DNA of 64,000 nt from contig NW_025964383.1 of NCBI RefSeq assembly GCF_023055435.1, positions 46,066,001 to 46,130,000 on the forward strand. Direction: 5' to 3'. Positions within the stretch are counted from its first letter, which is position 1. Each line of letters opens with the position of its first letter. Shown here piece after piece: positions 14,486 to 60,400 of this stretch. A model generated the notes under the pieces. That model did no database searches, was not told where the DNA came from, and was given only the letters and a program-made list of their open reading frames with translations. The stretch is from Haliotis rufescens. Its lineage: Eukaryota. Position numbers and translations under genes: made by a program.

Positions 14486-15054
14486 ACGAAACAAATCAGT
14501 TCTGCTGACTCTCTGATATACCGATGAACAGCCAAAGGGGATGGGGTAGGTTATATAACATACACGTAGTGTACCATGTGTCTCCCGCTACTCACACAGC
14601 CTCAGTCCTGGAGTGTGACACACTGACACCCGCGCCACAGTCGGGTTGCATTTCGCCGGATATCACCATGATTCGGATTCTGTGAAGAATGTGTACCATG
14701 TGAGAACAGACCTCGGTTTATCCGGTGAACAGGGTTGCGCTGTACGCCTGACTCCGCAACTGAGCTGCTAGGGTGCTACTATCACTGACAGCTGGATACG
14801 CCCCTAGCTGAACGATTCCTGGACGCACCCAGTCAATCTGCAGCCGTTACGTGTCAATATTACCGGGATCAGCAGATGTCCGGGGACATCCTGCCATCTC
14901 CAAACTGGATGTTCGAGGTGGATTACCAACGTGGTACCACATAGACAGGTAACATTACAAACTTTTATGAAACACATGTGTCCTAACACTTGCATTCAAA
15001 TTGTTTACAAAAGTAATCGGTTTAGTCATTTGAACAAAATTGTGTACTTTATGC

Positions 15055-15320: not shown

Positions 15321-16164
15321 TAAGTTATGTATTTGCATAGATACATACATGTACCATCAATTGCATACGCGTTTCATATAATATAATATTTAAGGTCTAG
15401 ATCCTGACATGTAAATGCTAATCATTTATCATATGTCAACTGCGTCGTTTAAATGTGGTTGTTTAACGCAACACTAAGTAATATGCCAGCTATATCCATC
15501 GGTGTGTTAATAGTCGAGCTTTTATACTCCAGTGATGTTACGAGCCACGTCACACGCCGATGGGGTACGATGAAGCTCAAGCAACCATATTGCCTGCTGT
15601 CTGATCTACTGGACAACATGGGTGTAGAAAGGGAGTCAATCAGTCTTATGAATCAAATGAAACACATATACCAACTCAGTCGGCGAATACTGACCTACTG
15701 TGTGTAGATATAGGTAGAATAGATGAGCAGTTGTGACACGATTTATCTATGCATTAAGTCGACTGTACGATTCCGATTATGTCATGATCATGTGTTTATG
15801 AATCACTATCAAAAAGTGATGACACCAGCTGTATAACTCAACTTTAGCTAAAACTAAGCTATAGCTAAACGCTGTAACGGTCGTTTCATTTGTTTTACAG
15901 GTATCTCCAAAGGATCGTGTTATTGTCTCACAGTTCAGTGATGTAAGTTTTCTGATGATAAATGTTGTCTGATAGTATGAAAGCAAACTGATTAAAACCA
16001 ACCGTCATTGATCTCTGATTTGGACCATTCTATCATCATTTCCGATATTAGCAAAGAGTTTACGTATATTTTGTTATTTTGTCATGGTAGAATGACAATG
16101 AACCAACCGACATTGTTATCGAATCTATGCTGGAAACATCTAAATTCAAAGCAGGTTTATTTTG

Positions 16165-16467
16165 TAACAAATGTTATATTTGGGATAACACTTTCTGAGT
16201 AACATACAGATTCTCGCACTTCTTTGGGTGGAGTCCCGTCCGGGATTCGAACCCACACTGCCAGAGTGAAGCACCTAATCGGCAGTGGAAGCCTCGGTGG
16301 CTGGGTGGGTTAGATCACTGACTTTGTGTGTTGGCGATTAGATGCCTCAATCCCCGAGGGGACTAAACCCCCAAAAGTACGAGAATCTGTACTTTACTCA
16401 GAAAGTGTTATCCCAAATATAACATTTGTTACATTTGACCACTTTCTAAATGGCATTGTGTCTTCAT
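16165..16467. mobile_element. ~300-bp insertion with ~55-bp inverted repeats and a tRNA-like interior, flanked by a 12-bp target-site duplication
   Basis: aggtttattttg at 16153-16164 and 16468-16479; empty site in copy 3 (~25218); taacaaatgttatatttgggataacactttctgagt and its reverse complement; related copy near 54050-54255. Confidence 0.8.
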
Positions 16468-16594
16468 AGGTTTATTTTGACAATATATTTCAGTTGATCT
16501 TCACACTCAGACTGTTCACTGCCGCAATCGTCTATTTTCTCCTAGATACGCCCTCAAGCATCAAGTGACGTTAAACATTTAATCTTACAGCACC

Positions 16595-17774
16595 ATGGAC
16601 AGAGGCTCCGTCCAGAAGCTAGTTGCTGATATACTGCGATGCATTCAGGACGAGGAACGGAAGAAGCAGGAGGTGATGGACGCTCTGAAGCACCTAGCAG
16701 ATGAACTGGATGTCAAGCAGCGAGACATGAACATCGCCAAGACTGCCTTCGCATCAGGTGGGATCGCAGCTACAGGCTTAACTGTCGCAGGAATAGCAGC
16801 AGCCCCCTTCACCTTTGGAGCATCCCTAGGGATGACCGCAGCGGGCGTTGCTCTTGGTGTGTCCAGTGGTCTTGGTGGACTGGCGACAACCATTGCTGAC
16901 AAGATCATCAACAGCAAAACGATGACAGAAGCTCAAGCCAAGATTGATGACTATCAGAAAACTGTTACAGACTTGGCCAGCCTCCTTGAGAGTGTGAATT
17001 CCAATAACAGCCATGAACTTCGCAATAGGATCACTGAAGTAATCTTTTAAATATTTGGTTGTTTTTCTGTTAGTTTGTAATCTTTCGTTTTAGTTATCGA
17101 CTTAGTATTTTAACCTCCCTTCAGCGACTTAATCGCGTGTCTGTTAGAGCAGCAAAGTTATAATTTCAGAATTGAGATGACAACGTAGAACATACAGGGA
17201 TCAAACTGTGAAGATTTATGAAGGAGTTTAATGTAACCTCTTGGATAAATGGGAATGTATATATATCATACATAACTTGATCAGAAGTCGGTAAAAAGAG
17301 CAACATACTTTCAACTACAGGAAATCGACAGCCTGGGGGAAAGTGAGAGTCAGGTGACCCTGGAACTGATCCTCAGTGGGCTGAAGACAGCAGCAGAGGC
17401 GGGCGGATCTGCTGCCAGGACAACAGCTGTTGCAGGGGCAGTCGCAGCTCGGGCCACGTTGGCAGTGGGGAAGACGATGATGGACGTGATGGAGACGGGG
17501 GCCAAAGCCATGAAGGTCGGGGGAGTTGTGCTGTCGGTGTTGACTGTGCCACTGGATCTGCACACTATGATCTCCAACAGCATAAAGATCCACAAGAACA
17601 CGCCATCTGAAACTGCAGTGGAGATCCGAAATATGGCAATACATTTGGGGAAAATGAATGGTTTGTGCTTTCTCATTGTCACTGCCTGCTGTTATTTTAA
17701 ATGTCTGCTTTACGTCAAAACAAAGATGCAAGTTCACTTGCATAGAATCAGTGATAACCTGCAAGATAAATTGA
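16595..17774 (+). CDS. cassette gene A copy 2: apolipoprotein L-like; exons 16595-17038, 17321-17660, 17746-17774
   Basis: APOL signature; acceptor cttacag just before caccATG; donors gaa|gtaatc and aatg|gtttgt; acceptors ctacag|gaa and gcatag|aa. Confidence 0.9.
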
Positions 17775-18461
17775 ATTTAGAATAGAGCCTAGTAATTGAC
17801 TAGTGGAGTTAATGTCACAGTTATTGTCCTTCCCCTATCCAGCTGTATAGCATTGGTCACTTCAAGTACATGTAGTAACTGTAAGTGTGTTGAAATACTT
17901 TCAAATTGGTTTATTGTTGTCTGTTAGGACTTATGACTTGACTATTGAATTTGACTTACTTGACTTTTGAAAAGGGGCCCTCTTGAAGTGGTTTAGTGAA
18001 AACGATTTCTGTATGCACGTGAGTTGCGAGTTTATTGGGAAATTATCTAGATATACTAGGACACAAACTATCTTGTTTTGACAAAACAAAATGCATCTTC
18101 TTACAAACAGAAGGACACAGACGTTAATCGTAATATTGATTTGAGTTGTGTGATGTGAATCAGCACTATTGTTTAGATTATTAATTCCACCATCTTCTTT
18201 TATACGGATCGTACATCGTATGTTAGCCAATCCGAAACGAACACTCATAGGACAAAACACATTGCCCTCGATTCATCTAACAGCAAGTTAGCATGTGGTG
18301 ACTTTACTGGCCGTAAAGTCGTGATGTATGGGCAGGTTAACCGACACCATGTCATGTTGATATTGAGCCTAAACCGTATATTGGTAACTTTTCAAGGTAA
18401 TTTCTTGTTGGTAATGGTATTTTCAAATGGTAAATAATTAGTTGTTTATTTCTTTCCTCAG

Positions 18462-19270
18462 CTGAAATTCGACGAGAACGCCTGATACAGATAGTAGACA
18501 AAGTACCCACTGATGTAACTGAACTCGCCAAGAAGTATGATACATGCAACTACCTTCCTACATTGCTCAAGCTGTTCTGTATCTGTGTGCAAGTCTCCGC
18601 CATTGTGTTCGTTATACTTGTTCGACTGATGTGTGTTTTTATGGATGTTTGGTTTTCAACTTCTGCCTTCTTGAAGTCATGTGCAACAACTGTAGTTGTG
18701 TGTGGACTAGTTAATCTTGTGTTAGAAATGTACTTGATTATTTCAAATAATTCCATTTGGGATGATGTGGAGTCGAAACTTGACAAATTTGTAAATGCAA
18801 TCACGTTTGTCACCCGCATGGATGACGATGATGATTTCCGAGTTGAAGTGCGTTCATTACATTGTACAATTCAACGCAAGATCCATGCTGGGGAGTATAT
18901 GAAATGTATCAACGGTGAGTTTATATTGATTGCAGTAACATTGATCCTCGATGTCTGCCTTTTTCTGCATTGCAGACAAGGAGAGGCTACGGAAACCCCA
19001 GTCTTGAATTTCAAGACATCCGAAGACGCTGCCAAATCTCTGGCAGTCTACACCAATAACCATCATATGGTTGGACTCGGTGGACTGATGTTTGCCGTTC
19101 TCTCTTTACCAATATCACTGTTTCTCCTGCAATCCTTGAGTTCAACAGTTCGTGGCCTTAAGAAATCAAAAGTAGCTGAGGCTATGGAGGATCTTGGGGA
19201 GGATTTCAGACATCGCTTTCACAAACTTCTCGTTCAAGCTGATTATAATTCGACTCCAGCTGAAACATAG
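18462..19270 (+). CDS. cassette gene B copy 2: diverged APOL-like membrane protein (terminal exon)
   Basis: acceptor tttcctcag|ctgaa, open to TAG at 19270; paralogous to 9350-10152 and 27202-28160. Confidence 0.75.
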
Positions 19271-19839
19271 ATACCGAGGCTATATTAAAAACGGAAATAC
19301 TGACCAGCGTGAAATGCATTGTCAATGCATTAAAACAGCATATGTTTTATACCAATTAGCTAGTCGGAGAGGGGGGATCGGAATGGCCGAAATCGTCCCA
19401 TATGCACCATGCTTGCCTAAAGACATCAAATCGAGTGTCACTAATTATATGGCTAGATCACATTGTCAGACTCTACACAGTGAGACGCTGTTTGTCCAGA
19501 CAAACTTTCAGGTGAAAACGACTGAATTAACAAATGACCGGATAAACAAATCATGAGTACATTGTAACTGTATTAGGACGTCCCCACCAGGAATCAGGCT
19601 GATTACGATGTGTCCAGACTGTTTCACTGTGTAGTGTAATCCACAGCCCTGAATGTTCATCCTACTTCAATCATGTTCTCCTTATTTGTTCATGTTTATC
19701 CTACAATTGGCAATTGACTCTGCTATTTGTAGATATTTCTTATTATTATTAAATGGGTTAAATCGCATTTATTTAGAAATATTAAACTGTAATAACCTCA
19801 TGTCTTATTACTTTCAGTATCCATATACATACTATATCG

Positions 19840-22380: not shown

Positions 22381-22742
22381 TTGGTCGGTAGAAGGTTTGT
22401 TTACACAGTTTGATTGCCTGTGCTCAACTCATTAGGCGAGCTAGTTTAGCGATAAATAAAAAGTTCAATTATGTAGGGTTCTGGAAATGCTCATAAAAAC
22501 GAAAGTTCATGTTTTATATAAAAGTCTGTGATGCCCATCGGCTTTAAATGTATAACTGATGGGTCTATCTTTGGCGTGGGCTTTCCCAGATTGCACCACA
22601 GCCTGTAATGTACGACGCTGGTGAGCTATTGTTAGCGTGACGTCAGCGTTGCACATCCGTGCCTGGGGTAGAATCGGACTTTCTTTATCATCACTCAAGA
22701 TATCGATGCACAGCTGACAGAGATAAGGTGGGTTACTCAACA
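22381..22742. repeat. ~360-bp direct repeat, copy 1
   Basis: near-identical to 24520-24880 (a few substitutions). Confidence 0.9.
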
Positions 22743-24201
22743 TACACTTTGTTAAATATGTGTCGCCTGATACACATCAAGCCTCAGTTATGGAGAGGAC
22801 TCACCGACACAAGCACCACACTCTGGTTTTATTTGGTCAGATATCAGCATGATTCGGATTCACACACACACACACATGTGGCCAAGTCATGTTTTAAGTA
22901 TTTGTACATATAAGTTAAATATTTTAGATGTTTCATTTTAGCTTTAAACTTTACATACAGTACCCTAAAAACAAACCTTTAGAGTTATACAAGCCCTCAA
23001 TACAATAAGCCTATCCCTGCACCCTGCATTTAACAATAGCCACCTCACTGGGTCAGGCCAGGTTCTGACCCATGCGTATGCACACTGCACAAGTTTCTTT
23101 TGTCTGTCTGCTTTAGTGTCTCTGGTCAGCTTACTATCTATTGTGTATGTAGTTTTAAAGGTTTCTGTCTGGCATATCCTGTTGGCAGTTGTACACATTT
23201 TTTCAAGGAGGTCACTTGGATTGATATTTGATCGTTTTCCTTAATATCAGCCCCTTGCTGATTGTGGATGTGGAATATTGGGCATTTATGGAACCCGATA
23301 TTTGTGTATTGAGGATTTCATTATCCAGGTTAGTTTATGTGTAGTATTTCATATACTGTATATATGGTCTTGTACATATTGTATTTCTTAAGAGGTGTTA
23401 GATTAATGCATCAGTGTATAATTAAACTTAGCTGGTAGCTAAAGTAAAGTAGGTATTTCAACTATCATTACAGTTGGTTGTATGTAGAATTTATTTTATT
23501 GCAATCTAAAATGTATCATATTGCATCTTTACAGTATGTTATCTTCTTAAATACTGAATTACTAGTATACACTTTACTAAACTAAATTATTATTTAAACA
23601 TGTTCTAAAACCTATAACTGTCTGAACGTGGTATGAAATAAGAACGTATGTATGGGAGGTCGGTTGTTTTTATATCTTATTTTATATGGCCATTATTAGT
23701 ATTGTCAAGGTTGTATTTCAACTTGTTATAGAATGATGTGACGGTAAACAACTTTGAACGTTGCTGCGAACCACTGAGTTAAGCTCATTGCCACACAGTG
23801 GTAAGTTGGGAACATAATTATATATATGGTTCAAACTAATAACTAGTATATTGTTATCCTTCTAAATTAATGTTTTGTGTGAATGTAATGTATTCACAAA
23901 GTATTTACAAATGGCAATTTTATATAGTTATTCAGAAATAGTTTAGATCCTGCTATTTATATTTAAGAATTTATTCATGCTAGTGCTAATGTGCTAGCTG
24001 ATAAGATGAAGGCATGTAATTGTATTTAATCTCCATGAAGGCAATATTATTATGTTCTTCTACAAAAATACTTATGATGTTTGCTTTATATTTTATATTT
24101 TCAGGGTTTACTATGATTATTATTATCTGCACTCTGAATAAAGATGGTTGTCATGTGAACTGACGAGTAGCGTTGTGTTGTGTGTGTCCCACCAACATCC
24201 A

Positions 24202-24880: not shown

Positions 24881-25338
24881 ACTCACTATCAAATAGTGAT
24901 TATACCTATAACTACGTTATAGCTAAACGTTGAAACGGTCGTTTCATTTGGTATCTGCAAATGCTTATGCAATTGTCTCGCAGTGCAGTGTTGTAAGTGT
25001 AAGTGTAAGCAGGTCATGATAGAAGTTGTCCGATAGTATGAAAGCAAACTTTTACCGATTATAACCAACCATGATTGATCTCTGATTTGGACAATTCCCC
25101 CATCATGTTCGATATTAGCCAAGGGGTCGCGTATATTTTGTTATTTTGTCATGGTAGAATGACAATAAACTAAACGGCATTGTTATAGAATCTACGCTGG
25201 AAACATCTAATTCAAAGCAGGTGTATCTTGACAACATATTTCACACTCAGAATATTCACTGCCGCATGGTACGAAACGTTTTCTGCTAGATATGCCCTAA
25301 AGCGTCAACTCACTTTCAACATCTAATCTTACAGCACC

Positions 25339-26524
25339 ATGGACAGAGGCTCCGTCCAGAACCTAGCTGCTGAAATACTGCGATGCATTCAGGATGAGGA
25401 ACGGAAGAAGCAGGAGGTGATGGACGCTCTGAAGCACCTAGCAGATGAACTGGATGTCAAGCAACGAGACATGAACATCGCCAAGACTGCCTTCGCATCC
25501 GGTGGGATCGCAGCTACAGGCTTAACTGTAGCAGGAATAGCAGCGGCCCCCTTCACCTTTGGAGCATCCCTAGGGATGACCATCGCGGGCGTTGCTCTTG
25601 GTGTGTCTAGTGGTCTTGGTGGACTGGCGACAACCATTGCTGACAAGATCATCAACAGCAAGACGATGACAGAAGCTCAAGCCAAGATTGACTATCAGAA
25701 AACTGTGACAGACTTGGCCAGCCTCCTTAAGAGTGTGAATTCCAATAACAGCCATGAACTTCGCAATAGGATCACTGAAGTAATCACCTTTTAAATATCT
25801 TGATGTTTTTCTGTCAGTTTATGTTTCTTTTTAGTTATAGACTCTTCATTGTAACCTCTCTTCAACCACTTAATCATGTGTCTGTTAGTGCAGCAAGATT
25901 ATAGTTTCAGAAATGAGATGACAACGTAGAACATACATGGATCAAACTGTGAAGAATTTTGAAGGAGTTTAATGTAACCTCTTGACTAAATGGGAACTAA
26001 TATATATCATACAAGATCAGAAGTCGCTAAGTAGAGCAACATGCTTTCAACTACAGGAAATCAACAGCCTGGGAGAAAGTGAGAGTCGGGTGACCCTGGA
26101 ACTGATCCTCAGTGGGCTGAAGACAGCAGCAGAGGCGGGCGGATCTGCTGCCAGGACAACAGCTGTTGCAGGGGCAGTCGCAGCTCGGACCACGTTGGCA
26201 GTGGGGAAGACAATGATGGACGTGATGGAGACGGGAGCCAAGGCTATGAAGATCGGAGGGGTTGTGCTGTCGGTGTTGACTGTGCCACTGGATCTGCACA
26301 CTATGATCTCCAACAGCATAAAGATCCATAAGAAGACGCCGTCGGAAACTGCAGAGGAGATCCGAAATATGGCAACACATTTAGAGAAACTAAATGGTTG
26401 GTGCTACGTCAGGTTCACTGCCTGCTGCTAAAGAAATGTCTTATTTATGTCCAAACAAACATGCACGTTCAATTGCATAGAATCAGTGATAACCAACAAG
26501 ATAGATGGGTTGAGTATTGAATAA
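25339..26524 (+). CDS. cassette gene A copy 3: apolipoprotein L-like; exons 25339-25779, 26057-26396, 26481-26524
   Basis: APOL signature, same splice sites as copy 2, one in-frame codon deletion (KIDYQK). Confidence 0.88.
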
Positions 26525-27201: not shown

Positions 27202-28160
27202 CTAAAATTCGCCGACAACGCGTGATACAGATAGTAGAAAAAGTACCTGCTGACGTAACTGAACTTGCCAGGAAGTATGATACGTCCAACTGCCTTCCTA
27301 CATTGCTCAAGCTGTTGTGTATCTGTGTGCAGGTCTCCGCCATTGTGTTCGTTATAATACTTCGACTGATGTGTGTTTTCGTGGATGTTTGGTTTTCAAC
27401 CTCTGCCCTCTTGAAATTATTCACAGCAACTGTAGTTTTGTGTGGACTAGTTATTCTTGTGTTAGAAATGTACTTGATTATTTCAGATAACTCCATTTGG
27501 GATGATGTGGGGTCGAAACTTGACAAATTTGTGAATTCAATCAAGTATGTCACCCGCATGGATGAAAATGAGTCTCTTCGAGCTGAAGTGCGTTCTCTTC
27601 ATTGTACAATTCAACACAAGATCCATGCTGGGGAGTATATGAAATCTAGCAACAGTGAATTTATATTGATTGCGGTAACATTGATTCTAAATGTCGCCCT
27701 GTTTCTGCATTGCTGGCATGAAGAGGCTACAGAAACTGCAGTCTTGAATGTAGAAGCATCTGCCCATTCTCTGGCAGTCTACACCAATAACCATTCTCTG
27801 GCAGTCTACACCAATAACCATCATATGGTTGGACTCGGTGGACTGATGTTTGGTGTTCTCTCTTTACCAATATCACTGTTTCTCCTGCAATCCTTGAGTT
27901 CAACAGTTCGTGGCCTTAAGAAATCAAAAGTGGCTGAGGCTTTGAAGAATCTTGGGGAGGATTCAGATATCGTTTTCACGAACTTCTCGTCGGAGAGGGA
28001 TGGTTGGATCATAGGTGAAATCCTCCCATATGTACCATGCTTGCCTAAACTAGACATCATATCGAGTGTCACCCATTTAACAGCTAGATCACATCGTCAG
28101 ACTCTACACAGTGAGACGTTCTTTGTCCAGACAGACCTTCAGGTGAAATCGTCTGGATAA
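27202..28160 (+). CDS. cassette gene B copy 3: diverged APOL-like protein with a 27-nt internal duplication and frameshifted C-terminus
   Basis: acceptor tatcctcag|ctaaa; HSLAVYTNN twice; 1-nt loss at gattcaga plus ~130-bp deletion reads into former 3' UTR. Confidence 0.65.
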
Positions 28161-33545: not shown

Positions 33546-34187
33546 CCGACATGAAATAATTTGTGTTTGAAGGAGATTTGTCGAAAGTTCTTTTGACAAA
33601 AATAATTATGCTTCAGACTGGTGCAGGCATAGAACAAAATGCTTTTATACATTCTTAGGATTCATTTAAAGCCACAAAACCACCATCATGTAAATGGACC
33701 ATGGAATTTAACAACTGAACTTACGTTAACATAATTCACAGCCCCGGGTTTATTTTGTGTATTCCTCAATGATCCAGCAATCCTGTTTTCCTGCTCGTGT
33801 CTCATTTTCACCCTTGCTGCAGCAAAAACGACAATGTTTCCCATTATAGCAAAGTCAAAACTAGAACTCAACTCTTTAATAAAACAACTATACATGTATA
33901 ATTTTGATGACACCGGGCCCGATCGTTTATGTATGGTAGAAATTTATATGTTATTTCTCAAGTAATCATTAAGTTTCATTAAGTATAAGAGTAAACATGC
34001 AGATTGCCCGAAACGTAATATTGTGGCGTCGCGACGGAGCAATTCGCCCAATCGCAGCTGCAATGCCATATACGTGCAGCATGCAATTTTCTGAACTGCT
34101 GTGACTATTCCTGTCTCGGCAAGGTTTAAAAGGCTAGGACAATTACTGCTGACACACATATCAGAAAATTAGAAAACGGGCCGTTAT

Positions 34188-35070
34188 GTGCCAAGTCTAT
34201 CAGAAGCTAAACGCAACAACGCCATTGGCCGACTGCAAGTGGGTGAAACACATCAGCATGTGGCGCAGGCGATGGGTGTGATCAGATTGACCATCTCTAA
34301 CTTGTGGAGACGTTACAACATCACCGGCAAGGTTCGTGACAGGCCATGGTCAGGACGACCTCGCGTTACAACGCCTAGCCAAGATCGTTTACATCCGGAA
34401 AGGCACCTGCGGAACCGTTTCATCACTGTCGAGAGCAGTCGGTATTCTAGCCGAGAGACCCGTGCAGCGTAACATCCTGACGCCGCATCACCTGCGTGAA
34501 CGTCTGCAGTGGTGTTGTCAGAGAGTCACACGCCCTCAAGCAAGATGGAAACGGGTTCTGTTCACGTCTGCTAAGACGTGCTGATGGACGTGCCCGTGTG
34601 TACCAACGTAGTAACGAACGTTTCGCTGCGAATTGCGTTTAGCAAGTGGATCGACTGGAAGTGGAAGCGTCATGGTTGTGTGAGAGTGGATGGTGCTCTG
34701 AAAATGGTCTACGCTATTGAGATCCTGCAGCGCCACGTTGTCTCCTTCATCAACGTTTAATGGCGGCATCTTTAAGCAGGACAACGCCAGACCCCACGTC
34801 GCACGTGTGTGCACAGACTTTTTTGCGTCAGAACAACGTGCCCACGCTACCCTGGCCTGTCAGTTCGCCAGACTTGTCCCCTATTGAACATCTGTGGGAC
34901 GTGGTGGATCGTCGTGTCCGTCAACGTCAACCACCGCCACAGACACTTCAGGAACTGTTTGTGGCGCTAGGGCAGGAGTTGCAGAACATCCCCCGGGCTG
35001 TTATTCAGACTTTGATCGCGCCTCTGGGCAGTCGCTGCCATGAGATGATAGCAGCTCGAGGAGGATATAA
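34188..35070 (+). mobile_element. Tc1/mariner transposase remnant (frameshifted, internally deleted)
   Basis: HTH region NAIGRLQVG..TISNLWRRY..RSGRPRVTT-like, WKRVLFT, QDNARPH, WPVSSPDLSPIEHLWD. Confidence 0.92.
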
Positions 35071-36092
35071 CTTTTCTCATACCCCGGACGTCTTTGCACC
35101 TGTTTTTTTTAAGTGTATATTGTACAGCAATAGTTTACCTATACATTCCACTATTTATAATATTTATTAAATTTTAACACGAAAAATAAAAAACAACCGA
35201 GTTGCAATCCTGATGTATTGTCTTTTGTTTGACCAGTACTGAAACTGTGGACAGTTCCCCGCTCTCTCATCACACCAGGCATCAAACGCCAGTGCGTCTT
35301 GTTCCTCGGCAGTGGCTCGTTCAGTGTACGTGTCATGCGCGTCATGTTGCAGGTTATGCATAGTGGCAGCTGTCACCTGATGCGCGAAACATGTGCTGCT
35401 CGCAGAAAGGAGTCAGCCGTACCAGAGGTTGCTATCTAAGCCTGCACAAGGGCCTGTGTCCACCCACTGCCCTGCAGCCAGTCTCCTGCAGTCTTCATGG
35501 CCGCCATTTCAATGGGAAGACCACCTTAGATTATCACAAAGTGGTCTTCCCCGTGTGTGTCTGGCCAGTTCCATTGTATTTGTATGACAATGGCTGGTCG
35601 AAAGACACATCCAGGTGTGGATTCAGGCGGATGACTGCTTCCTAGACAACATTCATGGAATGGCGGTTCATTGCCACAGAGTGAGCTTTGTCATGAAAGA
35701 GTGGGAGCAAAGCAGTTGGGGTGACTGCATCATGATCTACTGGTACACTATGACTTTTTGACATTATGATGAAGCAGTTCTATTCGTATACGACTATCAA
35801 GAAGCAAACTGTAAAAGGTTTCACCGTAGGTTCTGAAACGTAGTTACAAAACGTTGTGTGATGTCTGATGTACAACTTTTTCTTTTCGTTGTACCTTACA
35901 ACATGTGGGATTTTTTGTTAAATAGATGTACCTAGATGCACATGTTTACCTTATACCTCGATATTACTAATGCACCGAGAAATAACCATGGCTTTAATCA
36001 ATGAAAAAAAACCAATTACTCCTTTCTACCTGGTAATAGCCATCGGTGACATTTGCGGGCATGTCAAACTAATTATATATATGTAATTTCAG

Positions 36093-39000: not shown

Positions 39001-42000
39001 TCGTTCTTAACTACATATCATTTATTATTTTGTTCTCAGATGAGGCAAGCGAAGAACTTTTGGAAGGTAAGAGTAGAATTCAACTCAGATTGTTTATGGT
39101 TTTGTTATATGAAAGGGTAGATAATGTTGGCTCCAATCTTTTCACCTTGACAAAAGAACAGGCAATTAAAATAGATCACTCAGTTTTGCTGAGAATCTAT
39201 CTCAACTTAGGTATTGATTCCATTGAGACATGTGTAATGTCGCATAAAAATATGAAAATGACAAATATCACCTTTTTGTAATCAGATGACCACAATTTAG
39301 ATGGGTAATCAAACGTTGATAAGGTGAAATGAAGACGGATTATTAATGAGGCTCTAGTTTTCTTGTCTTCAGAAATTGTACAAAAAGCTGCGAAGGAATG
39401 GTTTTAACCGGTTTGTCATTTATGTCACAGTTGACACGGATCTATCATATGGTGTTATCATTTACTGCAGTTACATACACATGTGCGATGTAGTTTTAAG
39501 TTGTAATGTTTAAGCTAATGCCTCGATGCATCGCCACCGCATCATAAAAAAAACTCTTATAGTAATGGCCATATGATGATGCAGATAAGATTAATAACAG
39601 AATTCGAAGGGATATGCATGTTGTTACATGGGTGATGATTTCACATCTTTAGTCAGATTTAGCAGTATGTCATACTTTTCTCCTCAGTAAGCAGTGACGA
39701 CACATGGTATACATACCATAATCACAGAGGTGAGATGAATAACATAGTTTCACATAGTCGTGATGACTATTAAATTAATGGCTAAAAAGAATCAAATAGT
39801 TTTTATATTGAGAGTTAAAAGCATTAATGCCGTTACATAATCATGTTGAGGCATGAGTGTCTCAATCGTTCAACGTGACACAATTCACTATCCAGTTGCA
39901 TTCCTTGTCGTGACGGTATCCAGTGATCTTCGGTCGGTATCACAGATTATGATTACATTGTTGTGTTGCCAGTGGTTATACAAAAGTGGTAAACGTCTAG
40001 GATCTGCATGGGCTTTCTTCCAACATTAAGTTGACACGTTTCGATATATAACCGAAATATTGTTCGATGCAGCATTAAACAAAAACTACATAGTCACTAT
40101 AAAATCATGAATTCCTTAATGAAACGGGTTATAAACAATTCATATATACATGTAAAAAGTTAATATTATCCTTATTTCACAGAGCAACACAAAATGCCTA
40201 TTGCCAACATCCCGCTTCATGATGCCAGTGCTAAAGGTGATCTGGAACGCGTAAAACACATCGTGAGTACTGGTGCAGTAGACGTCAACATCCGAGGGTT
40301 GTACGGATTGACACCGTTGATGTTGGCAGCACAGAACGGGCACTATGATGTCTTTGAATATCTTCACAGTAACGGAGCTGATTTGACGCTAGTGGATCGT
40401 GATGGGGACCACATTCTGAGCATGGCCTGTGTGGGAAACAATATGGACATGGTGAAGTATGTTGTCTCAAAGGAACCTACCCTTATCAACAAAAGGAGAA
40501 ACGACGGACGAACAGCTTTGATGTGGGTAGCATGGCATGGGAAGGAAACCGTGTTTCGCTATCTGCTGGATAAAGGAGCTGAATGTTCATTAGTGGATAA
40601 TGATGGACACAACACTCTTCATTATGCCTGCCATGGAGGACACATTGGAATCGTGAATTATGTCATCGATAGGCCCACACTTAATATCAGCAATAGAGAC
40701 TTACGTGGAAGAACAGCATTAATGATAGCAGCTACGTACGGACATAAAGATGTGTTTGAATTACTTGTTGGGAAAGACAGTGACATATCACACACAGATA
40801 AGCACGGTAACACTATACTCCATGCGGCATGCAGTGGAGGAGATGTGGAGATGGTGCAGCATGTCCTCTCACAGGAAGATATTTACATCAACTGTAGAGG
40901 GCAGAATGGGGGCACACCACTGATGTTTGCAGCATTTGGGGGACACAGAGAGGTATTTGACCTACTTGTGACGAAGGGAGCTGATGCAACACTTGTTTGT
41001 AACAAGGGGAACACCATCCTACACGTGGCTTGCATTGGAGGACATGTGGAGATGGTGGAGCACATCATGTCACAAGGCATCGGGGACGTCAACAGTCAAA
41101 ATCAAGATGGGAGGACGCCACTATTGTTGGCAGCATTTGGTGGACACAGAGAGGTATTTGACCTACTCGTGAGAAATGGAGCTAATGCATCAGTAGTTTG
41201 TAACATGGGGAACACCATCCTACACGTGGCTTGCATTGGAGGACATGTGGAGATGGTGGAGCACATCATGTCACAAGGCATCGGGGACGTCAACAGTCAA
41301 AATCAAGATGGGAGGACGCCACTATTGTTGGCAGCATTTGGTGGACACAGAGAGGTATTTGACCTACTCGTGAGAAATGGAGCTAATGCATCAGTAGTTT
41401 GTAACATGGGGAACACCATCCTACACGTGGCTTGCATTGGAGGACATGTGGAGATGGTGGAGCACATCATGTCACAAGGCATTGGGGACGTCAACAGTCA
41501 AAATCAAGATGGGAGGACGCCACTATTGTTGGCAGCATTTGGTGGACACAGAGAGGTATTTGACCTACTCGTGAGAAATGGAGCTAATGCATCAGTAGTT
41601 TGTAACATGGGGAACACCATCCTACACGTGGCTTGCATTGGAGGACATGTGGAGATGGTGGAGCACATCATGTCACAAGGCATTGGGGACGTCAACAGTC
41701 AAAATCAAGATGGGAGGACGCCACTATTGTTGGCAGCATTTGGTGGACACAGAGAGGTATTTGACCTACTCGTGAGAAATGGAGCTAATGCATCAGTAGT
41801 TTGTAACAAGGGGAACACCATCCTACACGTGGCTTGCATTGGAGGACATGTGGAGATGGTGGAGCACATCATGTCACAAGGCATTGGGGACGTCAACAGT
41901 CAAAATCAAGATGGGAGGACGCCACTATTGTTGGCAGCATTTGGTGGACACAGAGAGGTATTTGACCTACTCGTGAGAAATGGAGCTAATGCATCAGTAG

Positions 42001-42410
42001 TTTGTAACAAGGGGAACACCATCCTACACGTGGCGTGCATTGGAGGACATGTGGAGATGGTGGAGCACATCATGTCACAAGGCATTGGGGACGTCAACAG
42101 TCAAAATCAAGATGGGAGGACGCCACTGATGTCGGCAGAGCTGCAGGGATGTGGTGAAACCCTTCTGAGTCCAGGTGTTGATCTATCACAAATGAATGAT
42201 AAAGGAAACAACGTCCTTCATCTGGCCTGTGAAATAGGAAGTATGGAGATCGTGCAACATGTTGTGTCACAGAACAGTCTTGACATTAACGCCAAAAACA
42301 GTAAAGGCGAAACAGCCACTAGGGTTGCAAAGCGTAAACATCACATGGATTTGTATGAATGGTTGGTGTCACAAGGAGGTCATGTTGTCAGCAAGTCTTA
42401 CAAACACTAA
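36093..42410 (+). CDS. single-pass membrane protein with cytoplasmic ankyrin repeats; exons 36093-36216 (TM), 36860-36873, 39040-39066, 39688-39729, 40183-42410; ectodomain exons not found
   Basis: phase-compatible GT-AG exons give LWQIFVAVVTTVIVEIIIIILIGVMYT-SRRKN-NEASEELLE-VSSDDTWYTYHNHR-EQHKMPIA followed by ~20 ankyrin repeats (GxTPLxxAA..G, GNTILHxAC..G). Confidence 0.8.
36494..36661 (+). mobile_element. full-length tRNA-derived SINE with (CTCA)n tail
   Basis: A box tagcctagtggtt, B box ggttcgatgcc; flanked by a catactttagac direct repeat (TSD). Confidence 0.9.
37780..38065 (-). mobile_element. tRNA-derived SINE with (CTCA)n tail
   Basis: minus strand ggtccaatcgtctaaggcg..gggttcgaatcccgg; tail gagtgagtgagtga on the plus strand. 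Confidence 0.8.
38070..38315 (+). mobile_element. SINE-like interspersed repeat
   Basis: aacccatgcttgtcgtaagag..cagaccgccgtca..gaatattgctgagtg; family present four or more times in the window. Confidence 0.8.
40905..42130 (+). repeat. coding tandem repeat, 201-bp unit (67 aa = two ankyrin repeats), ~6 copies
   Basis: unit offsets of 201 bp (41102, 41303, 41504, 41705, 41906 in the ORF track). Confidence 0.95.
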
Positions 42411-48654: not shown

Positions 48655-49878
48655 TGACATACTTTCGCAATATTCAGATAAATGGATACTTAGTGTTAAT
48701 CTTGATAAAACAAATATTGTTAGATTTCGTAGAGGTGGTCGAGTGGCCGCAAGAGAGAAATGTTGTTTTTTTAGGTAACTATATTAATGTTGTGAATTAA
48801 TACAAATACCTTGGTATATTGTTTACCTATACACTGAATCTGAATAAGTCTGTAATTAATCTCACTAACAGAGCAAAGAAAGCTCTGTTACAAGTCCACT
48901 CTTTTATGTCTAAGCTTAGACTTATTTCACCGAAAATGTATTTCAAATTATTTGATTCTCAAATACAACCTATTTTACTATATGGGTCTGAGATATGGGG
49001 TTGTAAAGAGTTCTATACAATTGACACATACAGTTTCATCTCCTCATTTGTAAAATCTTTTTGAATGTTGGTATGTCAATACCAAGTAATACAGTTGATG
49101 GAGAATGCGGGAGATTCCCATTGTACATTATAGCTTAAACTCGTTGCTTGAGTGAGTGAGTAAGTGAGTGAGTATGGTTTTACGCCGCTTTTAGCAATAT
49201 TCCAGCAATATCACGGCGGGGTACACCAGAAATGGGCTTCACCTCGATAGTCTTGGAAAGAACACATGGGCTTCTTGTATACGTACATTGCTTTTTACAT
49301 ATGGCTCTGGTTTCATTTGGCTGTCCCAGACGATTGGTAACGCAATTTTTTCATTAAGTACTTTCGCATGTGTGCCATTGATATGTTTCATCAGAAATGG
49401 CATTCAGATATTTACGAAAGTTCAACAAATGATACGTATCGTCAGTTCAAGTCATTGCTTGAACCAGAATCTTATTTATCAAATTTACGGTACAGGAATA
49501 TCCGTAACATCATTCTTCGTTTGAGACTTGGCCTGAATGATCTAACAATTAACACAGGGAGATTTTCATCTGTTGAGAAGGTCATGCCCATTTTGTTGTC
49601 GAAGATGAATATCATGTTTTGTATATTTGCCCTATATACGAAAATCTAACCTACCGCAGTGGTCTTTATCTCATTTTAATGCTATAACATTGTCTTCATT
49701 ACTGTCCTGCCAGGATCTTCTAACACAACATCAACTGGCTGTGTACATACATCATGCGCTTTTTGTTACGAGGTGAATTGATACCTTGACTTTGTATCTT
49801 ATAAAATATGTTATGTAACTCCGTTGTATATGGGCCTATGGCCTTTCACACAATAAAGAATTGAAATGATTGAATTGA
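48655..49878 (+). mobile_element. 3' part of the CR1/RTE-X-like LINE (same family as 5044-7332) with a SINE fragment at 49150-49242
   Basis: KLFDSQIQPILLYGSEIWG, LRLGLNDLTINTGRF, tail aataaagaattgaaatgattgaattga. Confidence 0.9.
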
Positions 49879-57430: not shown

Positions 57431-60400
57431 ACACTTCAAGACTTCTTTGTCGATTCTGTGTTTGGCGTTCATTGTACTAACCATACGAGGTAAGTTTGTT
57501 AAATATACAGTGTTTAGTCACGATCTCCGCCACATAGGACCAGTATGTGACTAATACAATATCTCTTCTGAAGACATTTTATCCAACACAGATATATAGA
57601 ATACTAAACGAGCTCCCGTGTAATACCAATTTTATGAAACGAGTTCAAAGACAACTATTCACGAGTTTCATAAAATTGGTTTAACACGGGAGCGAGTTTA
57701 GTATTTTATTTATTACTTGCCATTTATAACGTTTTTAGAATTATACTGTTGAGTATGAATAGGCCGACACCTACACGATCCACGGCCGATTGAGTCAAAT
57801 GAGTCCAATTGAGTTTAACATAATACTACTTCAAACACTTCAACAGTTAGAACGTATGAATTTAATACCATACAACGGTCAACCTTTAGAATTCAGGCGT
57901 CCGTTCCACAAAATTATCGTAGGGCTAATCGCAACTCACATACTTTAACTTAGACTAACTTCTGTCGTTGCGCTACACTACGATCGCCTTGTGGAACGGG
58001 CCTTGCACCTTAAAGTTTACAATCACGTCACAATACCCGATGACGTAAATTGTGGAATTTTGTTGCACGATCCATTGGCGAAACAATGCCATGTGACGTT
58101 AGCCTAGCAACAAGGTTGCTGGGGTCATCGGGTGTGCATAAGCTCCTCTCAGTGATCTATCAACTCCATACGCAATGTTGTTGAATAAGCCAAGGGATGT
58201 TGAGAGCTTTCAATATTTGTTCGTGAAACGTGTTCCGAGAGTACATAAGCACGCGTTTTGGTATTACACGATGTATAATACAGCTGTATGTTTATTAAAC
58301 GGGTGATCTCTTCACGGGCAAGTAATAGAAGGGCTTATTGGACTGTGGATACTCTTTGTTCCTTGCGTCTCATGGCCTTGGACATGGGCGTCTCAGGGTC
58401 GATGTAAGAAAGCCTATTTATGATCCTTTGTGAAATTTGTCAAAATCACTGTCCGTTTCCGGCAAACTCGCACCATGGTTATAACTCTTTTAACCCTCCG
58501 GTTGTCTCGAACTTGCCTACGGATAAGCGAAATGTGAGAGACGGTTCAGGATAATGTTTATTAATATGTTGTTCTAACTATGACATTTAATTGCGCCGCT
58601 TGTCGGCGTGAGTAGAAACATGATTGAGGAAAAGGAAAGGAACGAGAGGTATGTACGTACATGCTTTCTGATATCTGACGGCTAGTCCGGACCTTAGTTG
58701 GGTCGGGTCGAATGTTTCGAACTCCCGGATAAGTCGAACTGTTTCTCTAGTCACCAGGAGTTCCCGGCAATATTCGTCTTGGTGAACTTATGGTTAAACA
58801 AAAAGCATTTGAAGTGTAGGTATATGGCAATGTGCATATCAAACAATTTTTTTACTTGACATCCCCAACTTGACCATGTCACAGTTATGTCCCCTTATTG
58901 ATTTCATATGGAATTTCATCCTGATTCTATGTTTTCAGCCACGCCATGCCGTAATGGTCAGCACTGCCGAGAATGTGACGATGACGGAGACTGCTCAACA
59001 CAGTGTGAACGTGGATACTTTGGGAAGAAATGCAGGTCAGAGTGCAGCAGCAGATGCACACATAAGTCGTGTAACCTCACAGCGGTAGGCATCGAGACTT
59101 GCACGGAGGGATGTGTTCCAGGATTCATGGGTACAAGCTGCAAGATACCATGTGGCAACCCTGGGACACAGTGTACGGAGTGTGAAGGTGGATGTGATGG
59201 CGGGTACTGCATGCTGAGTCCTACGTCGTGTGTTTCTGGATGTGTTGACTCCTACTATGGCCTTGACTGTAAGCACTGCTCTGAGAGATGTAAATCATGT
59301 AACAGGTCTACAGGAATATGTGTCCTGTGAGAAGTCATGTGAGAACTGTGCAGGATCTTGTGAGTCTGGATGTGAAGGAGGCTGTAAACCTGGCTTCTAT
59401 GGACATTGGTGTGATGAGGTGTGCAGTGAAAACTGCCGCTCTGGTCCCGACAGAGATTCAGTTTCTGTCTTGGAATGTGACAGAAATACGCCCAACAACT
59501 GTATCCGGGAGTGCGACAACAACACAGGAGATTGTATCCACGGTTGTAATGTCGGGTGGTATGGTACTAACTGCTCATCTCGCTGTAGCTCGAATTGTGC
59601 AAATCTGTCCTGCACTGAGTCAGGAGCGTGTGTTGATGGTTGTGCACCAGGGTATGCTGGGACTGACTGCTCATGCTATGAGAACTGTATTCAAGATATT
59701 TGTCACCCCAACTTCGGACACTGTGTGAAAGGATGCATCAACGGTTATTATGGTGCCTTTTGTAACAACACCTGTGAGATCTGTCTTGACGGCATATGTG
59801 ATTGGGAATTAGGAACCTGCATTCGAGGATGTAATTTTACTGACCTTTGATGCAAATCGACCTGTACACATGATTGTCCCTTAGATGTTTGCCTTACTGA
59901 TATGTCTTGTGAAGGTAGGTTCTTGAAATATGCATTTATAGATAGATCAAATAATCATATATACCATCACTTTGTGTCTTTATCCATTGTCCATGCTGAA
60001 CGTCTTTTCGGGACCCAGGATGTTGTTTGAAGATGGATGTGGGGAAAGAAATACCATTGAAGTTGTATTTATTGACCAATGTGTATTTGTCTTCACAATT
60101 CAGTTAACAATCCCATCCATCTCAAAATACGACGACGTCTCTGCAACATCCTTTAACATCATGTGACATATTTAACCATTATTGAAAAAGTCAGAGTGCA
60201 GTTCAATCGCCTCTGGAATTAACCATTGACTGTTACTTGTCATGTATTGCACGTGCATGGGGTAAATCATTGGTCGCGTTTGAACGTGTGTGCTTGGGTA
60301 GCTCCGTCCATCACCTGCATTCTTGCACTTTTCAATTTTTTAATAGTCGCTGTCGATCTCCTCCAGTTTCATAAAAGCATCCAATCAGTGGGAATGAAGC

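Follow-up and report, generated by a model that had tools for sequence, protein, structure and literature searches.

Two neighbouring coding regions on the forward strand of the Haliotis rufescens DNA, an ApoL unit (A) and a downstream open frame (B), raise the question of whether they encode one protein or two and whether splicing switches between a short and a long product. An earlier note had proposed that compatible splice phases allow A and B to be joined as one tandem protein. The window, the whole stretch of 64 kb that was analysed, was assigned to H. rufescens by protein matches. Both A and B proved to be exons of a single, already annotated gene, and the proposed fusion is the gene itself. 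The splicing switch was unsupported.

Gene copies in the window

The gene was present in three copies of a 3-4 kb unit, with long blocks that were 85-93% alike:

~9.1-12.3 kb, minus strand: copy 1 unit
16.2-19.8 kb, plus strand: copy 2 unit
25.2-28.4 kb, plus strand: copy 3 unit

Altogether, the cluster comprised at least six paralogs in H. rufescens. Copies 1 and 2 were oriented head-to-head. Between them lay a tandem GAAA motif of the IRF/ISRE type (13771-13785); across the window, the frequency of the IRF-type core pattern was not above chance (5 found vs 2.66 expected). Copies 2 and 3 shared the upstream blocks 14518-14680 / 22700-22861 (74%) and 15845-16164 / 24903-25230 (79%), which are candidates for a promoter or 5' exon. 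An imperfect inverted repeat just upstream of copy 2 (16163-16433), of high copy number in transcript contigs, is probably a short mobile element. Other parts of the window held an ankyrin-repeat frame of 748 codons with several near-identical 201-bp units (40164-42410, plus strand), and cysteine-rich exons that were EGF-like by eye and had no Pfam match in the two frames scanned (58813-59850, plus strand). By eye, the latter resemble a gene of the scavenger-receptor/MEGF type. Decayed Tc1-like transposase and LINE-like fragments were recognised by eye from the ORF list at 34173-35170, 5023-7221 and 49195-49649.

Exon structure and annotated proteins

The copy 2 gene and its two relatives comprised the following features:

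16591..17038, plus strand: first coding exon of copy 2, acceptor ...cttacag at 16590, ATG at 16595, phase-0 donor; encodes the AAAPFTFG hairpin within the N-terminal half of the ApoL domain
17039..17320, plus strand: first intron of copy 2, 282 nt, GT..AG
17321..17660, plus strand: second coding exon of copy 2, 340 nt, phase-1 donor; C-terminal half of the ApoL domain
17661..18461, plus strand: A-to-B intron of copy 2, 801 nt, GT..AG
18462..19270, plus strand: last coding exon of copy 2, domain B, residues 262-530
19271..19790, plus strand: 3' UTR of copy 2, ATTAAA at 19284, 19329, 19748 and 19781; contig cover to ~19787
9350..12015, minus strand: copy 1 gene, coding exons 12015-11572, 11290-10951 and 10152-9350; 528 aa; LOC125377568
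25339..28160, plus strand: copy 3 gene, exons 25339-25779, 26057-26396 and 27202-28160; 579 aa; LOC124149960

The splice sites named in the earlier note were found as described. The second coding exon of copy 2 ended in a phase-1 donor (aaaatgaatg/gtttgt at 17660/17661; the slash marks the splice site) and the B exon began behind a strong phase-1 acceptor (cctcag/ctg at 18461/18462). The same arrangement recurred in copy 1 (10951^10152, minus strand) and copy 3 (26396^27202). Phase agreement alone has a chance of one in three. Ranked by pyrimidine tract among the YAG sites scanned, the 18462 acceptor was first or tied first (26 sites in copy 2, 22 in copy 1 and 28 in copy 3), and B's acceptor was the sole one giving more than 48 further codons among 25 tested in copy 2 and 27 in copy 3. 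The A-to-B intron showed 82% identity with 28 gaps between copies 2 and 3, and the A exons 94-97%.

Joining 16595-17038, 17321-17660 and 18462-19270 gave a protein of 530 aa that was identical to the RefSeq model LOC124149961 (0 mismatches). The joined frames of copies 1 and 3 (528 and 579 aa) likewise had no internal stop and matched P0002 (LOC125377568) and P0004 (LOC124149960) with 0 mismatches each. The residues at the junction were KMN-A-EIRR, with KLN-A-KIRR in copy 3. Compared with copy 2, copy 3 lacked one T at ~27962, and in the alignment 65 other residues replaced the last 21. This single-T difference is either a real allele or an assembly error; the frame of the copy 3 tail (27962-28160) was kept in the closest paralogs, P0003 and P0010.

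An acceptor was located 4 nt 5' of the ATG in all copies, and one contig of run X5 (see below) began on the window at 16591, with 126 letters left unaligned. The preceding 5' exon is either too diverged to align or situated beyond 15400-19800; some of the annotated isoforms gain one more Met from it (MST-MDRG).

The architecture was not confined to the window. A search with the B exon against proteins of 470-2000 aa gave five matches among 2152 candidates, all from Haliotis, 528-579 aa long and carrying a Pfam ApoL domain. Three of them were letter-for-letter the joined models of copies 1, 2 and 3. Cluster look-ups added three loci or orthologs and one isoform, so that the annotated A+B set held nine proteins from eight loci in three species (six loci in H. 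rufescens and one each in H. cracherodii and H. asinina). The N-A junction was common to all nine. Besides LOC124149961, LOC125377568 and LOC124149960 (copies 2, 1 and 3), the set included LOC124149957, LOC125377436, LOC125371620, XP_071086127.1 and XP_067670075.1 as paralogs or orthologs of the same architecture. One annotated isoform pair differed solely by three N-terminal residues. The A first-exon query against proteins of 260-2000 aa gave seven matches among 7278 candidates; five were the fusions, and the other two were unnamed ApoLs with a single domain. An A-only Haliotis protein (265-266 aa, inside the searched range) was found neither among these seven nor among the cluster members examined, and none of 702 candidates between 147 and 469 aa was a B-only protein. 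Searches of this kind start from word seeds and may overlook sequences, and the RefSeq models are predictions that are not independent of reads like those considered below. The gene models are thus already public; every RefSeq Haliotis model is named 'uncharacterized' and B has no family assignment. A literature search, mostly outside subscription journals, yielded nothing on abalone ApoL or two-unit ApoLs.

Transcript contigs and proposed alternative products

Contigs of four of the 24 listed runs (X1, X2, X4 and X5), from four studies with four organism labels, were aligned to 15400-19800 at 85% likeness. The runs are probable RNA, a status guessed by the tool, and at this likeness contigs may derive from any paralog or sister species, and rare forms drop out of contigs. 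The 17660^18462 joint (801 nt, GT..AG) was present in all four runs with depths of 13.2, 17.7, 14.8 and 12.6 and 41-65 letters on the short side. The same runs carried the first-intron joint 17038^17321 (depths 11.4, 7.8, 17.2 and 7.15) and covered the second coding exon, 17321..17660. Depth was 0 in all bins from 17752 to 18339 in every run, while contigs joined across 17661-18461, and was also 0 in the first-intron bin 17164-17310, which argues that the contigs are spliced RNAs. A second joined variant, reading K-Q-N-A, occurred in X1 and X4, so more than one paralog or allele forms the A-B joint. The splicing of A and B into one protein of about 530 aa, proposed in the earlier note, is thus borne out by an identical RefSeq model and by the joint in four of four runs, and A+B is very probably the single main transcript. 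In this transcript, the N-terminus of B, which the earlier note had left open, is A.

Two further features in the A-to-B intron bear on alternative products:

18111..18127, plus strand: proposed short last exon of A, which would add EGHRR and a stop (5 residues)
18324..18396, plus strand: candidate own first exon of B, near-consensus phase-1 donor aag/gtaatt at 18397, 65 nt before the B acceptor

That A and B are separate neighbouring genes, joined by an annotation error or read-through, is hardly conceivable. Each half is domain-sized and a candidate start exon exists for B, but the A-B joint appeared in all four runs, the in-frame junction was conserved across three species, and poly(A) hexamers were absent from the A-to-B interval of copies 1 and 2. 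A regulated alternative last exon, by which one gene would yield both the 530-aa protein and an effector of 266 aa made of A alone, is very improbable. A alone would be a complete ApoL unit similar in size to single-domain relatives (270 and 289 aa), and the acceptor aaacag/aa, with a stop five codons on, was present in three of three copies. Nevertheless, the bin 18046-18192 had depth 0 in the four runs that join across it, and depth at the end of the second coding exon equalled the junction depth in X1 and X5. The acceptor was weak: it ranked 6th among 26 sites in copy 2 and 4th among 28 in copy 3, and in copy 1 it was not one of the best six of 22. AATAAA or ATTAAA did not occur for 1.1 kb after the short exon in any copy (1157 nt in copy 2), and no short annotated isoform was found, every annotated Haliotis protein found being A+B. 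Conservation of the short exon (41 of 50 columns, vs 43 of 50 in another intron block) was unremarkable because the copies are recent duplicates. Among the joints listed, the distal exon alone was used in four of four runs, a result on contigs, from which rare forms could escape. The premise that A owns a short last exon is not supported, given its zero depth, weak acceptor and lack of a nearby poly(A) hexamer. Positions 18111..18127 are most likely unused intron sequence, and the switch is unsupported, save possibly as a rare form.

Improbable, but less so than the switch, is a minor B-only transcript beside the main A+B product, starting in the intron and using the 18397 donor to give a membrane protein of ~283-293 aa; the same signals could be a relic of B's former first exon. 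The donor scored best in the intron in three of three copies (8 of 9 consensus letters, phase 1, 57-65 nt before the acceptor). In-frame ATGs lay 73 and 43 nt upstream of it in copies 1 and 2. As the earlier note had stated, the candidate exon was in frame in these two copies but not in copy 3, where a deletion of 10 nt explains the shift. Depth in the bin 18340-18486 exceeded that of the listed junction contigs in X2 (32.9 vs 17.7) and X5 (18.6 vs 12.6), an excess that can come from overlapping contigs, but was exactly accounted for in X1 (17.8 vs 17.8) and X4 (22.0 vs 22.0). Moreover, the 18396^18462 joint was absent among the joints listed, the frame was lost in copy 3 and, as noted, the protein search found no B-only product. 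The candidate first exon of B is vestigial, cryptic or rarely used.

Domain A

Judged by its profile matches, A is a true ApoL domain (PF05461). The first coding exon alone matched Pfam ApoL with E 2.1e-17 and 64 bits, and the second coding exon matched profile positions 210-289 with E 0.0015. The full-length paralog and ortholog P0003 and P0005 scored 76.3 and 80.1 bits against a gathering cut-off of 25.9 (E ~1e-21 to 1e-22). A spanned profile positions 54/65-291 of 298 and thus differed from known members in lacking the first ~50-60 positions. Its hydropathy peaks, a hairpin at 51-69 and 82-100 and a further helix at 214-232, were like those of the single-domain invertebrate-type ApoLs P0006 (270 aa) and P0007 (289 aa), which showed 53% and 46% identity to A's first exon and the same profile span. 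These two proteins end shortly past the ApoL motif and have no B, unlike the abalone protein. The helices of A were moderately hydrophobic (1.4-1.7). No stretch like a signal peptide was detected, as no 19-residue window reached a hydropathy of 1.2 before residue 51. The dN/dS of A was 0.21-0.25 (p 4e-5 and 6e-4 for the two copy pairs tested).

Domain B and its possible origin

B comprised four hydrophobic helices at ~297-315, 337-355, 414-432 and 465-483, with hydropathies of 2.1-2.6, and its C-terminal helix weakly resembled the ApoL C-terminal motif. B diverged faster than A, with 63% vs 77% identity to H. asinina. Its dN/dS was 0.54-0.60, significantly below 1 when copies 2 and 3 were compared (Fisher p 0.011) and not significantly so for copies 1 and 2 (p 0.23). 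Both halves are under purifying selection. Searched against 1.84 billion representatives, a B profile built from four sequences retrieved a single protein, the H. asinina fusion, which had gone into building the profile; B is found in abalones alone, as far as this profile search reaches.

The earlier note had called the protein a double ApoL. For A the label holds by the Pfam match. No Pfam ApoL match was obtained for three B exons or five sub-pieces, the full-length proteins showed one ApoL stretch, and B is left with a marginal in-register motif match. In hhalign, A209-253 aligned with residues 462-506 (B201-245) over 45 residues with E 0.009 and a probability below 5%. This best match, which lies at much the same place in both halves, pairs A's GGVVLSVLTVPLDL...SETAVEIR with B's GGLMFAVLSLPISL...SKVAEAM. 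The motif match in B recurred with two distant single-domain ApoLs (hhalign E 0.066, probability below 5%), and a second copy of the ApoL motif aligned near residues 329-358. The local A-B score exceeded that of every shuffle, both in the full set (150) and in the windowed set (150). End-to-end profile alignments of A and B were mostly not significant, with 49, 114, 7 and 21 of 150 shuffles reaching the score. By HMM, the five related B sequences ranked 1, 2, 3, 5 and 8 of 57 with margins below 2 bits, against a background of 52 pieces drawn from E. coli (38 genes out of 47), of which 18 pieces belonged to membrane proteins. With a second scoring, unrelated E. coli pieces reached B's scores and B was not separated. 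B also had neither A's intron nor the Gly/Ala-rich hairpin.

Structure prediction gave AlphaFold2 models too poor for use, with a mean pLDDT of 35 for the full protein (five sequences) and 47 for B (four sequences). A wide fold search returned helical bundles of a generic kind (best Z 11.2, rmsd 3.0, 148 aligned), with no ApoL among the matches listed, which carries no weight against an ApoL fold, and a PDB sequence search had no match under E 0.05. In an Atlas search, there was no usable named match, and weak arthropod 7tm_7-like leads (0.86-0.90) were of low recognition. An insect chemoreceptor origin of B was rejected as a generic likeness of hydrophobic helices. Trees of the A and B halves had support too weak for dating events.

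These observations leave two readings of B within the same gene structure. B may be a four-helix membrane domain of unrelated or de novo origin that the abalone lineage took up as a last exon, a reading to which we give a substantial minority weight. The missing Pfam ApoL and usable named Atlas matches fit it, as do the hhalign probability below 5%, a composition unlike that of A (10 Cys vs 1; G/A/S/T 23% vs 39%) and the fact that B's weak matches to helices of the insect chemoreceptor type are of the same order. Against it, the A209-253 / B201-245 match falls near the same position for five of five B sequences and for unrelated single-domain ApoLs, the local score beats all full and windowed shuffles, and the halves are equal in length with a similar helix layout. 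By a small margin of belief, we favour an ApoL ancestry of B, and with it a double ApoL. At this slightly better than even weight, B would be a second ApoL coding unit that was captured as the last exon and then diverged faster. B should not be placed in PF05461.

Proposed function and significance

The abalone protein resembles the intracellular ApoLs of PF05461, such as human APOL2 and APOL3, in the profile match of A, the hydrophobic hairpin, the C-terminal helix and the lack of a stretch like a signal peptide. Human APOL1-6 also form a duplicated gene cluster, according to the accessible part of PMC12248542. Unlike the intracellular ApoLs, the abalone protein carries an extra domain of 269 residues with four much more hydrophobic helices. 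The portions available of three ApoL reviews (PMC8557400, PMC12248542, PMC13177371) deal with single-unit proteins, and the word 'invertebrate' does not occur in them. As described in the available text of PMC12248542, known ApoLs are single units that shift between soluble and membrane states, with a debated topology of 2, 2.5 or 4 passes. Human APOL1 splice variants are a precedent for splicing that alters ApoL topology (PMC8557400, available sections). The APOL1 choice concerns the N-terminal signal peptide, whereas the abalone genes showed no alternative coding form beyond a three-residue N-terminal extension.

We propose that the ApoL unit A would stay cytosolic, because no signal peptide or early hydrophobic window is present, and would be anchored permanently in an internal membrane by the four-helix hydrophobic domain of B. 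The helices of B (2.1-2.6, compared with 1.4-1.7 in A) appear hydrophobic enough for constitutive insertion; because they are even in number, A would face the same side of the membrane as the C-terminal helix. On these hydropathy values, B is quite probably a membrane anchor. The term 'membrane-tethered' in the earlier note fits the hydropathy of B; the tethering itself would follow from it. B may also pack against A and restrain it.

The anchored A+B protein could serve inside cells as an immune effector that damages or remodels membranes. This role is borrowed from other ApoLs. Vertebrate ApoLs without a signal peptide are described as intracellular proteins that work on membranes and counter microbes within cells (PMC12248542, PMC13177371 and PMC8557400, in the parts available), and in mussel an ApoL ranks first in a list of transcripts confined to haemocytes (PMC4581086, Table 3, seen in the available part of that paper). 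By analogy, an immune membrane effector is a moderately probable function of A+B. The whole account, one gene with an ApoL domain and a membrane-anchoring B that serves as an intracellular immune effector, is held with similar, fairly good confidence. A more elaborate version is doubtful: a single-chain two-unit ApoL in which a conserved lytic unit is joined to a fast-evolving second ApoL unit turned four-pass membrane module, as a built-in heterodimer that would pre-position and perhaps gate the effector, in at least six genes and possibly with a minor B-only regulator transcript.

The finding is less striking than had been proposed, as the gene models are already public and the splicing switch is unsupported. 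What emerges is an ApoL variant restricted to the abalone lineage, in a recently expanded cluster, for which membrane tethering is likely. A natural ApoL with a hydrophobic second half could be used to test how ApoL activity is governed by tethering or by a covalent partner, and the A+B gene bears on the role of ApoL in mollusc immunity, in farmed and threatened abalones.
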